From contig JALFQD010000409.1 in NCBI GenBank assembly GCA_022785265.1, forward strand, positions 46,222-110,221: 64,000 nucleotides of DNA, given 5' to 3'. Position 1 is the stretch's first letter, and every line of letters begins with the position of its first letter. The position numbers and the translations under genes were made by a program. This DNA is from Clostridium sp. Lineage in GTDB: Bacteria > Bacillota > Clostridia > Clostridiales > Clostridiaceae. The notes under the pieces are model-generated. The model was not told where the DNA came from. It was given only the letters and a program-made list of their open reading frames with translations, and did not search any database. Positions 38,239-43,227 of this stretch are shown piece after piece.

Positions 38239-38499
38239 GGGTGATATTGCTCAAGTAAAATCTTGTGAACTGCTGGAACATCCTTAGAGCTTCTATACCA
38301 CCGCGAAAAGATGAAATAAGCTTAAACGTTAATGGTTTAAAAAGTTAGAAGATTGGACAATCAGCAACCAAGCTCCGAATAGGAGAAGGCTCATCGACTA
38401 TCGAAATTAATAGTAGAGTAGAGGTAATACAGACCTCGAAGCGCAAGAAATTCAAGCTTAAAAATATATGGACAAAAATAATTAAAAAGGAGGTGTAGT

Positions 38500-39132
38500 A
38501 TGGCCACTGAAAATACCCCAATTTTATATACAGATTTATCTTCATTAATTACTCGTTTACAAAATGTTTATACTACACATGGTTTAACTTGGAATTGGAG
38601 TGTGCCTGGTAATGAAGTGGGTATCTACCCTCTTTCTACTGAAATAACAAATCTTTATAATAAATTTGTTTCCGCACAAACAGAAGAACATTTAGCAACT
38701 TGTGTAAAATGGACTATCGCCAATGGGGAACTAGATCCTGGCGCTCCCTTAAAAGATGAAACATTAAATGCGGCTGCCGCATCTCTTTTATCTATGGAAG
38801 CGCAAACACATTATTCAAGAGTGGTTAATACTGCTGGCGCGTTATATACTTAGACCTCTCATTCTAATCAAACCACTTATAGTGAATCTTCTAATACAGC
38901 TGGCACTTCCTATTCAAACACCAGTAATGGCCGTAATTGTACTCAAAACTCTTCAAGAAATTCTCAAAGTGGCAATAGTTCTAAATGTGGTTGTCATGTT
39001 GTATATGGTAGTGATTGTAGTCAATCTAGTAATACTGCAACAACTACCTATTCAGAAACTTCATATAAAGCTGGTACAACTTATAGTCAAACGACAAATT
39101 CAAATGAAACCACTTATACGTTTTCAGAATAA
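38500..39132 (+). CDS. precursor-like protein C1 (cassette C); in-frame TAG at 38851
   Basis: Track ORF 38500-38853 continues through the TAG into a Ser/Thr/Asn/Tyr-rich repetitive tail (TTYSE, TSYSN, TTYSQ, TTYTF, few Cys) ending at TAA 39130. The overlapping track ORF 38768-39139 is in the wrong frame. Confidence 0.65.
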
Positions 39133-39143
39133 AAGGTGAATAA

Positions 39144-39590
39144 ATGAATATTGATATAAATCAAGAACCTATTGAAATTTTATTTAATATTAATAATATA
39201 TTAAAACAAAATCAACTGGGGAAAGAAGAAAAACAGCAATTATCTGATATTTGTGACATCTTATTGGAAAAAATAATTACTCGTCAAGGAAAATATCAAG
39301 TTGTTCCTGTTGTAAATGATAATAATTATGATAGCGGCTATTTTGTTTCTTCATTAGATTATCTTACAAAACCATATCAAATACATGAACATAAATACAT
39401 TGATAACGGCAATTTAAAATTGACTGAAGTATATTATACTGGTGCAAACGGTTTAAAATATCGAAAAGTTGCTTTTCCTGAAGTTTATAAAGACCCTGGC
39501 TTTTTATTGAATAATTCTTTGCTTGCTGAAAGACAAAAAAATATGGCATATCTTGCAAATAAACGTAATAAGGAGAATAAAAACATATGA
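39144..39590 (+). CDS. hypothetical protein (cassette C)
   Basis: 148 aa ORF with RBS aaaaggtg. Confidence 0.45.
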   Translation: MNIDINQEPIEILFNINNILKQNQLGKEEKQQLSDICDILLEKIITRQGKYQVVPVVNDNNYDSGYFVSSLDYLTKPYQIHEHKYIDNGNLKLTEVYYTGANGLKYRKVAFPEVYKDPGFLLNNSLLAERQKNMAYLANKRNKENKNI

Positions 39591-39904
39591 AAATTGGTAT
39601 TTCATGTGATACAAATAATCAAACCTATGATATTCCAGATTTTTGGAATATTGAATTTGGTGATAAAGAAGCTTTAGCTGAAACACGTTTTTCATCTATT
39701 GGCCAAATTACCAATACAAATCCTGCCGATCCAACCCTTAAAAATATAAGTTTAAATTTCAAAGATTTAAATTCATTAGTAATTACCATTTACAATGATG
39801 ATGGTGTTGCAATATATACTCAGATTTGTAATCGTTTAATTTATGCTATTCGTCGCGTAAATACAGAAAATAATTTTATAGAAAGTTTATACTTCGTATC
39901 GTGA
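39587..39904 (+). CDS. hypothetical protein (cassette C)
   Basis: Overlapping start/stop with its neighbours. Confidence 0.45.
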   Translation: MKIGISCDTNNQTYDIPDFWNIEFGDKEALAETRFSSIGQITNTNPADPTLKNISLNFKDLNSLVITIYNDDGVAIYTQICNRLIYAIRRVNTENNFIESLYFVS

Positions 39905-40152
39905 ATGAATCTTTAATTAGTTTTACTTTATTTGGTCAAAAAATTGACATTTTAGAAAATATGGTAAAACAATGGGATTTAATCAATAGTGACGATGGTA
40001 TAGTTTTAACTCTTTTTAATTGTAAATTAACAGAATATCCGCATGAAATTTTTAATGTTATTCTTAAAGGTGTGGATTATTCTAATATTCCCGCTTCAAT
40101 TAATCCAATAGATAATAATACACAGATTATAATTTTAAGGAAACATTTTTAA
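39901..40152 (+). CDS. hypothetical protein (cassette C)
   Basis: 83 aa ORF. Confidence 0.4.
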   Translation: MNESLISFTLFGQKIDILENMVKQWDLINSDDGIVLTLFNCKLTEYPHEIFNVILKGVDYSNIPASINPIDNNTQIIILRKHF

Positions 40153-41479: not shown

Positions 41480-41485
41480 AAAAAT

Positions 41486-41776
41486 ATGAAAACTTGTTAT
41501 ATTATTGATGGAGAAAAAGAACATCCTCATGACAATATTCCAGAAAAATGTTTGCAAACAATTGAGGATTCTAAAATAGTATTTTCTTATATAAAAAATG
41601 ATAATAGAAGAAGTATTATTAATATTATGCGAGAAGAGGTATATGGGATTCATGACTTTATATTAATAATAGATGATATTCCTTATAGCATTGACCATAC
41701 TGTATATAATACTATAATTAAAAATGAAAATAATGCCGTTTATGAATTTTTAACATTTTATCGTAAAGAGGAGTAA
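41486..41776 (+). CDS. hypothetical protein (cassette C)
   Basis: 96 aa ORF. Confidence 0.4.
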   Translation: MKTCYIIDGEKEHPHDNIPEKCLQTIEDSKIVFSYIKNDNRRSIINIMREEVYGIHDFILIIDDIPYSIDHTVYNTIIKNENNAVYEFLTFYRKEE

Positions 41777-41785
41777 GTTTAATAC

Positions 41786-43171
41786 ATGTCTTTTAAAAGT
41801 GAAAATAATGAACTCTTAAAATTTATTCTTAATGCAGCTTTTTTCTCTGGATGGAGTGATAAAAATTGTTCATCAGATTTAAATGGCGGCTCTCGTGTTA
41901 GTTCTTTAGAATTATATGTAACTTCTGAGTGTAACCAAAAATGTGAATATTGTTATTTAAATCGATATGGCGATAAACTTTATCCTGCCGAATTACGCAA
42001 TGAAACAACTATTCTTAGTAATCTTGATATATTATTAAAATATGCTGTAAAAAATTGGCCATATTTAAAACATATTGATATATTTAGTGGAGAGATTGTA
42101 GGCACTCAGATATTTTTTAATGTGTTAGATATAATTAAAAAATATAAAGAACAAGGATTAAATGAATTAGAAGAAATCATTGTTCCCACTAATTTTTCTT
42201 TTATTCATAGCCAAGAAATGACTGAAAAAGTGCAAAATTATATTGATGATTTTAACAAAAATTATAATATACGACTAGTGTTAAGTGCATCTATCGATGG
42301 TTATATTATTGAAGATTTTTCTCGTCCTCAAAAAATATACCATAAACGAGACATGGATTTTTATCATAAATCATTTCAATTTATGAAAAAAAATGGATTT
42401 TGCGCTCATCCTATGATTGCTGCATGTTCAGTTGATAAGTGGATTGAAAACTATAAGTGGTTTATTGATATGTGTGAACAATATGATTTTAATGTATTGC
42501 AGCAAGTAATGACATTAGAAGTTAGAAATGATGATTGGACTGATGAAGCAATTTCGCATTATCAAGAATTTTTAAAATTTTATTGTGATTATCATTTTGA
42601 ACATCGATATGATAGCAATCCTAGAAAATTTGCAAAAATGTCTTTAGGCTTAAATGAGGAGCGAAATGGATATACTAATTTTCTGCTTTTGGATGCGACT
42701 CAATTCCCCACTTGTAGTGTAGCCTATCAACTTACAGTAAGATTGGGAGACCTTTCCATTGCTCCCTGTCATCGTACTGCATATCCTGAATTTTTATATG
42801 GAAAATTTATTGTAGAAAATAATGAAATAATTGATATAGAAGCCAATAATCCAGTAATAGCAACCAAAATTTTACTTTCTAATCAAAGAAAAACTCATCA
42901 TGGTTGTGATACTTGTTGGAATGTTAATAGTTGTATTAGAGGATGCTTTGGCGCTCAATATGAATATGGTGATGAACCTTTTATGCCTTTACATTCAGTT
43001 TGTAAAATGTTCAAAGCAAAAACTCGTTGTTTAATACAATGGTATAAAGACCATGGAATTATAAATGCTATAAAGCAAATTGCCCAAGAAGAGAAACAAT
43101 CTCAAACAGAAATCCAAAAGTTTATTGAAACATTTGAAGAAATTGATAAACGTTCACAAATAGAAGAATAA
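41786..43171 (+). CDS. radical SAM/SPASM-like enzyme C3
   Basis: CNQKCEYC motif. Cys-rich C-terminus (CHRTAYPEF, CDTCWNVNSCIRGC). Paralog of A3 and B3. Confidence 0.8.
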   Translation: MSFKSENNELLKFILNAAFFSGWSDKNCSSDLNGGSRVSSLELYVTSECNQKCEYCYLNRYGDKLYPAELRNETTILSNLDILLKYAVKNWPYLKHIDIFSGEIVGTQIFFNVLDIIKKYKEQGLNELEEIIVPTNFSFIHSQEMTEKVQNYIDDFNKNYNIRLVLSASIDGYIIEDFSRPQKIYHKRDMDFYHKSFQFMKKNGFCAHPMIAACSVDKWIENYKWFIDMCEQYDFNVLQQVMTLEVRNDDWTDEAISHYQEFLKFYCDYHFEHRYDSNPRKFAKMSLGLNEERNGYTNFLLLDATQFPTCSVAYQLTVRLGDLSIAPCHRTAYPEFLYGKFIVENNEIIDIEANNPVIATKILLSNQRKTHHGCDTCWNVNSCIRGCFGAQYEYGDEPFMPLHSVCKMFKAKTRCLIQWYKDHGIINAIKQIAQEEKQSQTEIQKFIETFEEIDKRSQIEE

Positions 43172-43227
43172 ATAATATTTTGTCCATATATTATTTAAGC
43201 TTGAATTAAGATATAGTCAGACTTGCG

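Follow-up and report, generated by a model that had tools for sequence, protein, structure and literature searches.

A putative group I intron in phoH2 with a seven-gene radical-SAM operon in its P8 loop

We analyzed a 64,000-nucleotide stretch of phage DNA (hereafter the window) from a Clostridium sp. assembly (GCA_022785265.1, contig JALFQD010000409.1, forward-strand positions 46,222 to 110,221), in which the gene phoH2 is interrupted by about 5 kb of additional sequence. At 32.7% G+C, the window is rich in A and T, and the long open reading frames (ORFs) listed for it all lie on the plus strand, as do the phoH2 exons, the interruption, and the genes within it. Exon 1 (37378–38242) encodes a PIN domain followed by the N-terminal half of a PhoH ATPase, including its Walker A motif (GPAGSGKT), and exon 2 (43250–43668) encodes the DEAQN-type and C-terminal PhoH motifs. 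The element between them is 5,007 nt long (38243–43249), with G38243 as its first base and a terminal G at 43249. In all likelihood, this element is a group I intron that carries a seven-gene radical-SAM operon in the loop of its P8 helix, in place of an endonuclease gene, and that is predicted to be removed by splicing.

A sequence-only reading of the window had proposed a phoH2 group I intron of about 5 kb with a radical-SAM cassette in P8. This central claim is supported by an empty-site allele, by introns located at the same site in relatives, by covariation, and by matches of each ribozyme half to an Rfam model, and these lines of evidence are independent of each other.

The phoH2 exons and an empty-site allele

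The putative start of exon 1 is at 37378, an alternative start is located at 37345, and the 3′ end of the exon reads ...CTT GGG T. When the PIN-PhoH frame is followed across the exon boundary, it reads ...NSARLG and then encounters a TGA stop codon (38242–38244) that spans the splice site. Exon 2 begins with TT TAT CCT GGT..., which encodes (F)YPGTRDEK..., and terminates with TAA. The product of the joined exons matches both the PIN_4 and PhoH families of Pfam. These exons agree with the earlier reading, which had phoH2 broken after Walker A and resuming with the DEAQN-type and C-terminal PhoH motifs.

Four in-frame TAG codons are present in phoH2 (37849, 37861, 37921, and 37942) and are read here as sense codons. 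Two of the four align with Gln residues of most homologues (in QEL and NQY motifs), and all are shared with the intron-less relative described below. Other in-frame TAG codons are found at 38851 and 41213, in the cargo genes C1 and C2, and more occur in ORFs across the window, where several ORFs become longer once TAG is read through. A tRNA with the anticodon CTA, labeled ‘Pyl’ by ARAGORN, is encoded at 22477–22551. TAG thus seems to have changed from a stop to a sense codon that probably specifies Gln.

The limits of the interruption are defined by a relative that lacks it (ENA contig ERZ15610046 NODE_68, hereafter L178). The gene order of L178 is identical to that of the window, and the two DNAs are 92%–94% identical. 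Its PhoH2 is intact at 419 amino acids, and this protein is 95% identical to that of the window. When compared by blastn, window positions 28629–38242 match L178 positions 1214–10841 (93.6%) and window positions 43250–45270 match L178 positions 10842–12855 (92.0%), with no sequence between the two blocks. Because the alignment stops at 38242 and restarts at 43250, the insertion is exactly 38243–43249, and the empty site of L178 reads acgacttgggt^tttatcctgg, where the caret marks the insertion point. The edges of this insertion coincide with the U at position −1 and with the terminal G that are predicted from the RNA structure.

When 38242 is joined to 43250, the sequence becomes CTT GGG T^TT TAT CCT, which encodes ...ARLGFYPGTRDEK... 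and restores the reading frame. The ligated exon junction is predicted to be ...GCACGACUUGGGU^UUUAUCCUGGUAC... (RNA ...CUUGGGU^UUUAUCC...). The insertion site lies between the first and second bases of a Phe codon in a conserved LG^FYPG motif, and the product encoded across the junction is identical to that of L178, L042, L043, and other relatives. Across the same point, 78 uninterrupted metagenomic relatives encode A(K/R)LG(F/Y)YPG. Moreover, the spliced PhoH2 aligns without gaps to the uninterrupted PhoH2 proteins of Alicyclobacillus phage KKP_3916, Geobacillus virus E3, and Bacillus phages.

The comparison with L178 also corrects the boundaries proposed from the sequence alone (38239–43227), which miss the true ones by 4 nt on the 5′ side and by 22 nt on the 3′ side. 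The terminal G assigned by that reading (43227) falls within the P9 hairpin (43222–43241). Removing 38239–43227 does join the exons in frame, as was claimed, but it adds a 6-amino-acid insertion (LVKAARVIV) that is found in no homologue. The join of 38238 to 43228 was therefore rejected because of these six extra residues, because its 3′ end is inside P9, and because it is contradicted by L178. The corrected junction is LG^FYPG rather than L^VKAARVIVYPG.

The ribozyme core and its relatives

The ribozyme core is split around the P8 loop, with P1 through the 5′ strand of P8 located at 38235–38477 and the 3′ strand of P8, J8/7, P7′, and P9 located at 43178–43249. In P1 (38235–38256), the exon sequence ACUUGGGU (38235–38242) is predicted to pair with the internal guide sequence GCUCAAGU (38249–38256). 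A U38242-G38249 wobble pair is formed at the splice site in the minimum free energy fold of a mini-intron whose P8 loop is replaced by GAAA. This fold also recovers P3, P4–P6, and the long P8 helix. The P1 loop has the sequence GAUAUU, of which GAUA (38243–38246) is able to pair with UAUC in exon 2 (43252–43255) to form P10. The first ∼255 nt of the interruption contain no plausible ORF.

The 5′ domain of the ribozyme (38261–38448) comprises P3 (38261–38267 with 38442–38448), P4, P5 with an extended P5a–c arm, P6, J6/7, the 5′ strand of P7, and a P7.1/7.2-like hairpin. P7 would form between GACUAU (38396–38401) and AUAGUC (43213–43218). Between the 5′ strand of P7 and P3′ lie the conserved sequence GUAGAGUAG and a covarying hairpin, features that may point to subgroup IA, of which the sequence-only reading had suggested IA2. 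The 29-nt 5′ strand of P8 (38449–38477; AAUUCAAGCUUAAAAAUAUAUGGACAAAA) pairs with a 30-nt 3′ strand (43178–43207; UUUUGUCCAUAUAUUAUUUAAGCUUGAAUU) with one bulge, and the latter strand begins 6 nt past the stop codon of the last cargo gene, C3. The final segment (43208–43249) includes J8/7 with P7′ (AAGAUAUAGUC) and P9 (CUUGCGG-UGAAAG-CCGCAAG, 43222–43241), and then continues with AGUAAUUG to G43249, which is the next frame-keeping G after P9.

Each half of the core was compared separately with the Rfam group I intron model RF00028. A 411-nt search of 38150–38560 alone matches model positions 50–157 (29.0 bits, E = 1.3e-5), and this match spans P3, P4, P5, P6, J6/7, the 5′ strand of P7, and P3′. 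The region 43100–43300 alone matches up to the last model position, 253/253 (25.4 bits, E = 7.3e-5), and spans P8′, J8/7, P7′, and P9. Both matches are significant, and the halves align to the model in canonical order, with the P3/P7 pseudoknot included.

Three short elements highlighted by the sequence-only reading are located where they had been predicted. The R-like element GGCTCATCGACTATCG lies inside the match to the 5′ half, the S element AAGATATAGTCAG is present at 43208–43220 within the match to the 3′ half, and the P7 strands GACTAT and ATAGTC face each other across the cargo. However, short motifs alone occur at chance level, since a 13-mer with 2 mismatches allowed gives 6 matches against 5 expected. 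The weight of the evidence therefore rests on structure, covariation, and the empty-site allele.

Related loci were obtained from IMG/VR by two scans. A scan for relatives of phoH2 yielded ∼75 uninterrupted genes and two genomes (∼94% identical) with the same interruption, and a scan for the P5/P4/P6 motif TGGACAATCAGCAACCAAG yielded 75 loci, several of which represent introns inserted at this very position of phoH2. In L083, L086, L102, L139, and L156, this intron is ∼1,288 nt long, and its P8 region holds a gene for a 314-amino-acid double-LAGLIDADG protein (phrog_4645, E = 2e-49). The intron is 365 nt long in L135 and L142, where P8 holds only the 3′ remnant of a LAGLIDADG gene, and 348 nt long in L105, where P8 lacks an ORF. 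A stop codon right after the 5′ splice site (TAA) is also present in the endonuclease-bearing relatives. The 29-bp form of P8 is found only in the cassette-bearing lineage, in which every genome has kept it (including L006, 175607, and L167), whereas the endonuclease-bearing and ORF-less relatives have only the core-proximal 9–11 bp.

Covariation was assessed with an alignment of ten same-site introns whose P8 loops were trimmed. RNAalifold predicts 70 base pairs, 27 of which have compensatory changes, and the consensus yields P1, P3, P4, P5(a–c), P6, P7.2, P8, and P9. When P7 is added, 99.2% of the cells are paired and 27 of the 72 pairs are changed on both sides. As controls, shuffled alignments give 16.4 ± 2.2 such pairs (0 of 500 reach 27), and slid pairing partners give only 2–5. 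The P1 pairs are retained in all ten sequences, and five of the eight P9 pairs exhibit compensatory changes. P7 gives no covariation signal because it is invariant. In the relatives, P10 is 6 bp long and covaries with the 3′ exon (GGAUAA/UUAUCC versus GGGUAA/UUACCC). Judged by these structural features, 38243–43249 is a bona fide group I intron.

A blastn search with the core reveals resemblance to introns or unannotated gaps in Bacillus phages SP-15 and AR9, in Staphylococcus K/Twort-like phages, in SPbeta, in Vibrio phage ICP1, and in phiKZ-like phages, among others. One core relative, in Clostridium phage D-1873, is annotated as ‘Group I catalytic intron’. Related group I introns are also present in three IMG/VR 3300045988 contigs (L101, L087, and L104), where the endonuclease ORF is located in the P6 loop and not in P8. 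This ribozyme family accordingly accepts cargo at different loops. The 75 motif-sharing loci offered one other candidate for a giant intron, L101 with an apparent 4.1 kb, and this was rejected since it consists of an intron with a P6 ORF plus a separate element.

Two other genes of the window also appear to be interrupted. The gyrB gene is broken in its Toprim motif (MMAADA^DPDGEAI) by a 260-nt insertion without an ORF (46800–47059), which is preceded by a U, has G as its last base, and contains a P9-like hairpin capped by GAAA. The 3′-end sequence that it was claimed to share with the phoH2 intron, AAGAAATAGTCAG, is indeed present at 47020. Judging from these features, the insertion looks like a second group I intron, and it has no Rfam match even at E ≤ 1. 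The gyrB region of relatives carries GIY-YIG or HNH endonuclease genes instead, and 45270–48881 of the window cannot be aligned to L178. A P-loop ATPase gene (56434–58502; GEPKSGKT...PYGK^GYTMAQDEF...) is split by an insertion of ∼1.08 kb (∼56797–57878). Its ORF (56952–57761) encodes a LAGLIDADG-type protein of 269 amino acids, which shares 31% identity with the L083 endonuclease encoded at the phoH site. This insertion has no Rfam match and is probably a third intron, with boundaries that can be placed after a U and after a G.

The cargo operon and its distribution

The P8 loop (38478–43177) is 4,700 nt long and contains seven co-oriented genes that abut or overlap when TAG is read through. 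It begins 22 nt upstream of the ATG codon of the first gene, C1, and ends 6 nt past the stop codon of C3. C1 (38500–39132) encodes a precursor-like protein of 210 amino acids, with one in-frame TAG codon (38851), and is preceded by a strong Shine-Dalgarno sequence (AAGGAGG). A conserved N-terminal domain of 110 amino acids is followed in this protein by Ser/Thr/Tyr/Asn-rich TxYSxT repeats around a Cys-rich center, and no match was found in Pfam, NCBIfam, or PHROGs.

Two of the cargo genes encode enzymes that can be safely assigned to the radical-SAM superfamily by their sequences, although all matches to individual families are below curated cut-offs. C2 (40154–41479) is predicted to encode a radical-SAM protein of 441 amino acids with the motif CNLNCRYC, with one TAG codon (41213) read through. 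It matches the Pfam family Radical_SAM at 26.6 bits (E = 8e-6), which is under the cut-off of 29.5. Its NCBIfam matches, all of which are also sub-cut-off, are to twitch-domain radical-SAM proteins, HxsB (‘rSAM_paired_1’), and DynA. C3 (41786–43171) is predicted to encode a radical-SAM/SPASM-like maturase of 461 amino acids with the motif CNQKCEYC. Below the NCBIfam cut-offs, it matches PapB-family ranthipeptide maturases (E = 1.6e-16) and a SPASM domain (E = 0.0015). The SCIFF maturase is likewise among the sub-threshold matches of C2 and C3, and the two proteins match phrog_1802 (listed for C2). The nearest solved structure to C3 is PDB 5WGG, a weak match (E = 6e-4), and 217 homologues of C3 were found.

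The remaining four cargo genes are small ORFs without a family match. Three of these lie between C1 and C2 (39144–39590, 39587–39904, and 39901–40152, encoding 148, 105, and 83 amino acids), and the fourth lies between C2 and C3 (41486–41776, 96 amino acids). The sequence-only reading was therefore correct in placing C1, small ORFs, C2, and C3 in the P8 region, but it had counted three small ORFs rather than four. None of the seven proteins matches a nuclease or a transposase/TnpB-like family in Pfam, NCBIfam, or PHROGs. Likewise, a tblastn search with the same-site LAGLIDADG protein found no endonuclease remnant in 38243–43249, and its sole match in the window is at 56985–57752. Since no endonuclease was found, the element does not qualify as a conventional homing intron, and since no transposase was found, it is not an IStron.

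Selection was evaluated by comparing the window with L167, which, among the genomes with an intron-borne cassette, is the most divergent. For exon 1, the ratio of nonsynonymous to synonymous divergence (dN/dS) is 0.064 and the synonymous divergence (dS) is 0.39. The exon 2 proteins are identical at 139 of 139 residues despite only 87% identity at third codon positions. The ribozyme halves are 93% and 96% identical, which is far above the conservation of synonymous sites. Within the cassette lineage, the ribozyme has also acquired structure-preserving double changes in P5 (U-A to C-G) and P7.2, and G-C pairs of P9 have become G-U or A-U in 175607. The dN/dS values of the cargo genes range from 0.13 to 0.52 (0.23 for C1, 0.15–0.25 for the three small ORFs at 39144–40152, 0.13 each for C2 and C3, and 0.52 for the 96-amino-acid ORF). 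On the basis of these comparisons, the exons, the ribozyme, and the cargo are each judged to be under purifying selection.

The cargo has diverged more than its surroundings. Between 38600–43200 and the corresponding region of L167 (4800–9400), DNA identity is 70%–85%, compared with 92%–96% for the exons and ribozyme, and identity recovers at the 3′ strand of P8. The dS values of the cargo genes (0.63–0.89) are approximately twice those of the flanks. This doubling and the drop in identity within the loop suggest that cassette alleles are exchanged by recombination within the conserved flanks. The presence/absence polymorphism relative to L178 indicates, in addition, that gain or precise loss occurs.

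Seven assemblies, of which two are IMG/VR genomes and five are Logan/ENA contigs originating in different studies, contain a C3 homologue that is 97%–99% identical, in the same arrangement of PIN, cassette, and PhoH. A version of C3 that is 82% identical exhibits this arrangement in two more assemblies. Because the layout is thus seen in at least ten independent assemblies, including the window, it is not an assembly artifact.

More distant versions of the cassette are located outside introns. L169 and L170 (71%) carry all seven genes in the same order, and L171 (71%) carries only the last five genes, adjoining a terminase gene; neither phoH nor intron halves are found near any of these cassettes. 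L172 (59%) has a detectable copy of five of the seven, with the order of two small ORFs swapped, between Mtd_N-type fiber genes and lysis genes, and this cassette too lies away from any phoH or intron halves. Still more distant versions, composed of a precursor gene and two radical-SAM genes, also lack intron motifs. No homologue of the cassette was found within 10 kb of phoH2 in the ∼75 relatives in which this gene is uninterrupted. Because it also occurs outside introns, the cassette is an independent, horizontally distributed phage module that was caught in P8 in one lineage. The neighborhoods of non-intron cassettes share only an endolysin gene with the window, and the idea that phoH was inserted into a cassette locus is unsupported for this reason.

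These loci also clarify the membership of the cassette. Orthologues of the three small ORFs at 39144–40152 are present in the same order in L169 and L170 and partly in L172, and the 96-amino-acid ORF has an orthologue at the same position in L167 and L169. The small ORFs therefore belong to the cassette, as all four have orthologues in non-intron cassettes (three of four in L172). Orthologues of C1 head the cassette in L167, L169, and L172. C1 and its orthologues are rich in repeats and co-occur with the enzyme pair at every locus examined but L171, and C1 is accordingly described here as a precursor-like candidate substrate of the maturases. The sequence-only reading had suggested a mobile intron-borne module, which is only partly borne out. 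The intron and its cargo are polymorphic between close relatives, but the cassette is found in non-intron settings as well, and no endonuclease is encoded by the intron itself.

Two further cassettes with paralogous radical-SAM pairs are present in the window. The pairs (800–2062 with 2043–3440, and 7878–9224 with 9190–10671) are 21%–34% identical to C2 and C3, and the cassette regions extend over 209–3440 and 5089–10671. Each pair is preceded by a repeat-rich, precursor-like ORF (209–799 and 7249–7872) with an N-terminal motif resembling that of C1. One phage thus holds three versions of an uncharacterized peptide-modification module. The additional two cassettes, A and B, are apparently not intron-borne, since positions 1–12500 contain neither a match to RF00028 nor core motifs.

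Precomputed Pfam matches on the syntenic genes of L178 identify two other products encoded upstream of phoH2. A 290-amino-acid ORF (29646–30518) corresponds to a Band_7/SPFH protein, and an 814-amino-acid ORF (30779–33223) matches the major-vault-protein domains MVP_shoulder and, weakly, Vault_3, which is unusual for a phage. A weak match to the hatchet ribozyme model RF02678 at 52593–52718 (26.9 bits versus 51, E = 0.41) is probably due to chance.

Splicing, alternatives, and known systems

A plausible series of events can be proposed for the expression of this locus. The two phoH2 exons would be transcribed, together with the cargo-bearing intron between them, as a single unit, which probably ends at a terminator at 43673–43705. 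This element, identified by a terminator scan directly after exon 2, is a strong hairpin with a 13-bp stem and T-runs on both sides, and the plus-strand scan of the cargo found no terminator between C1 and the 3′ strand of P8. The 5′ domain of the ribozyme (P1 to P7 and P3′) would fold first, and the 3′ strand of P8, J8/7, P7′, and P9 would be made ∼4.7 kb later. The complementarity of the 29-bp P8 helix is evident in the sequence, and this lineage-specific helix may clamp the two halves together. Guanosine-initiated cleavage after U38242 and exon ligation after G43249 would then create an mRNA encoding ...ARLGFYPGTRDEK.... The TGA codon at the start of the intron would bar ribosomes translating exon 1 from entering the ribozyme, and the cargo could be translated from the precursor, from the excised 5-kb intron RNA, or from both, by using its own ribosome-binding sites.

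Several points weigh against splicing by an intact, functional group I intron. Splicing is predicted here from DNA sequence. The P1 loop is unusually short (6 nt), and P10 has 4 bp only (GAUA/UAUC). Both halves of the core score under the 50-bit gathering threshold of RF00028 (29 and 25 bits, when scored separately with the 4.7-kb insert between them), whole-window Rfam scans in gathering and E-value modes found no intron, and no gathering-score match to Rfam is present in L105, L135, L142, or L083. This threshold is a detection criterion set by curators and not a biological definition. It is insensitive for this lineage, because even the ORF-less forms go unreported. A weak hairpin followed by a T stretch is present inside C1 (38768–38782). 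Promoter-like sites occur in the cargo at chance frequency (48 versus 49.3 ± 6.4 in shuffled sequence), and the cargo may or may not be transcribed independently. A translated insert of 4.7 kb in the catalytic core could slow folding or reduce efficiency. Furthermore, an unusual route, back-splicing, is taken by ND5-717, the one giant group I intron that has been studied well (PMC6545197).

The most viable alternative, which we nevertheless consider improbable, is that the intron is bipartite or processed. In this scenario, the halves are transcribed separately owing to a terminator or promoter within the cargo, or the P8 duplex is cut by RNase III, and trans-splicing proceeds with the halves held by P8 and tertiary contacts. 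The restriction of the 29-bp helix to the cassette lineage is consistent with such a role, since its length would suit a trans clamp or an RNase III substrate, but a long P8 would serve folding in cis equally well. Promoter-like hexamers do exist in the cargo (for example at 41691–41718, with 11 of 12 matches), yet they are no more common than in shuffled sequence. The giant ND5-717 intron also deviates from plain cis-splicing (PMC6545197). On the other hand, no terminator-like site is listed between C1 and the 3′ strand of P8, and the genes are co-oriented and tightly packed in the manner of an operon.

A dead intron is less probable still. By this explanation, phoH2 would be a pseudogene or would be expressed as two polypeptides, PIN-PhoH-N ending at the TGA codon (38242–38244) and PhoH-C beginning at GTG 43228. 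A GTG-initiated ORF (43228–43668) does exist, gene callers annotate two products in every assembly, exon 1 ends at a TGA codon that spans the splice site, and the Rfam gathering score is not reached. However, the break splits the conserved LGFYPG motif, and GTG 43228 is located inside the P9 hairpin without a Shine-Dalgarno sequence. The immediate stop codon is not peculiar to this locus, as endonuclease-bearing relatives have TAA after the 5′ splice site. The conservation of the ribozyme halves (93%–96%) at a dS of 0.39, the compensatory substitutions within the cassette lineage, and the 100% conservation of the exon 2 protein also argue against decay.

That the interruption is no intron at all, but an ordinary insertion (a transposon-like element or recombination cassette with inverted-repeat ends) or an assembly chimera, is effectively refuted: The 29-bp inverted repeat (38449–38477/43178–43207) could be read as terminal inverted repeats and the same cassette exists elsewhere in other phages, but the inserted segment also contains, outside the repeat, a conserved group I core of ∼235 nt on the 5′ side and 72 nt on the 3′ side, this core covaries and occurs at the same site with an endonuclease gene or no ORF, the indel ends exactly at the U/G splice-site pair, no transposase or integrase was found in Pfam, NCBIfam, or PHROGs, and the layout recurs in at least ten independent assemblies from different studies.

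The cis-spliced group I intron remains our preferred reading. We tentatively suggest, with real reservations, that the intron serves as a cargo bay. In this proposal, the P8 loop would be a safe harbor that allows the accessory operon to reside in a conserved phage gene and leave it active, the excised RNA would serve as a polycistronic mRNA, and the conserved exon and ribozyme flanks would enable co-infecting phages to acquire, shed, or trade the entire cassette, possibly with the aid of LAGLIDADG proteins of cognate introns acting in trans. The presence/absence polymorphism and the twofold greater synonymous divergence of the cargo relative to its flanks fit this proposal. Because the intron lacks an endonuclease, its mobility must rely on recombination or on an endonuclease provided in trans. 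Spread and loss could therefore proceed by homologous recombination in the conserved exon and ribozyme flanks, possibly together with the endonucleases of cognate introns. If the cargo-bay proposal is true, this is the first intron-borne accessory operon known to us in prokaryotic viruses.

Group I introns of bacteria and phages are known as minimal selfish elements that carry nothing, a single homing endonuclease, or, as with IStrons, a transposase of their own. In the present phage intron, the position of the endonuclease appears to be occupied by a complete, selected seven-gene operon. If the intron is spliced, then a group I core tolerates a translated P8 insert of 4.7 kb in a bacterial setting, and the 29-bp clamp may be the enabling adaptation, which would make it useful for studies of ribozyme folding and for engineering. 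Introns would then also offer a route for phage accessory modules into essential or conserved genes, and gene callers would systematically mis-annotate such loci as split genes, as they do in every assembly seen. The phoH2 site provides natural controls, since empty, ORF-less, endonuclease-remnant, endonuclease-bearing, and cassette-bearing forms all exist there. The cargo is of interest in itself as a widespread, uncharacterized phage module of paired radical-SAM enzymes and a repeat-rich protein, present three times in the window.

A literature search found no description of a phage or bacterial group I intron with multi-gene non-nuclease cargo or radical-SAM cargo, and the literature on phoH introns and recoded phages yielded no description of this locus; the coverage of both searches is incomplete, and absence from them is no proof. 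Several known systems nonetheless resemble parts of the locus. Paired radical-SAM systems, including HxsB/HxsC, PapB, SCIFF/CteB, and the triceptide/cyclophane maturases, share with the cargo two adjacent CxxxCxxC enzymes, SPASM/twitch-like C-terminal Cys motifs, and a neighboring protein with short aromatic/Ser/Asn-rich repeats. The matches to these systems are far under the curated cut-offs (60 versus 340 bits for PapB and 34 versus 370 bits for HxsB). Moreover, the ‘precursor’ here is a protein of ∼210 amino acids with a conserved N-terminal domain of 110 amino acids, and not a short peptide.

The ribozyme itself closely follows the endonuclease-bearing group I introns of phages. Common features include the P1–P9 core, the J6/7 sequence CUCAUC-GACUA, J8/7 (AAGAUAUAGUC), and an insertion point within a conserved motif of a conserved gene. 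In both cases, the 5′ splice site has a U-G pair and is directly followed by a stop codon, the last intron base is a G, and the P8 loop contains coding sequence that is served by a ribosome-binding site of its own. In contrast, the same-site endonuclease introns carry one gene of ∼0.95 kb, whereas this intron carries seven non-nuclease genes in 4.7 kb and is approximately four times as long (5,007 nt versus ∼1,288 nt). The same-site relatives also have a P8 of ∼10 bp and a P1 loop of 16–18 nt, compared with 29 bp and 6 nt here.

IStrons provide a second comparison, as they are group I ribozymes of the bacterial world with cargo other than a homing endonuclease. Their cargo is located at the 3′ end of the ribozyme and consists of their own TnpA/TnpB, whereas the cargo here is a peptide-modification operon in P8 without a transposase/TnpB-like match. 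In IStrons such as CdISt1 of Clostridioides difficile, a group I intron is joined to an IS200/605-type element, and its removal by splicing lessens the harm to the gene in which it resides (PMC10690162).

The nearest functional analogue is the ND5-717 intron of hexacoral mitochondria, which is likewise a kilobase-scale group I intron with non-endonuclease genes in P8. Its P8 segment contains ordinary genes, and the intron is removed even though it is many kilobases long (Chi et al. 2019; PMC6545197). This intron is organellar, vertically inherited, and obligate, and its cargo is composed of core mitochondrial genes, which in corallimorpharians amount to almost the whole mitogenome (18–19 kb) (PMC6545197). 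The intron described here differs in residing in a phage, in carrying an accessory operon that is found outside introns as well, and in being present or absent between near-identical genomes.

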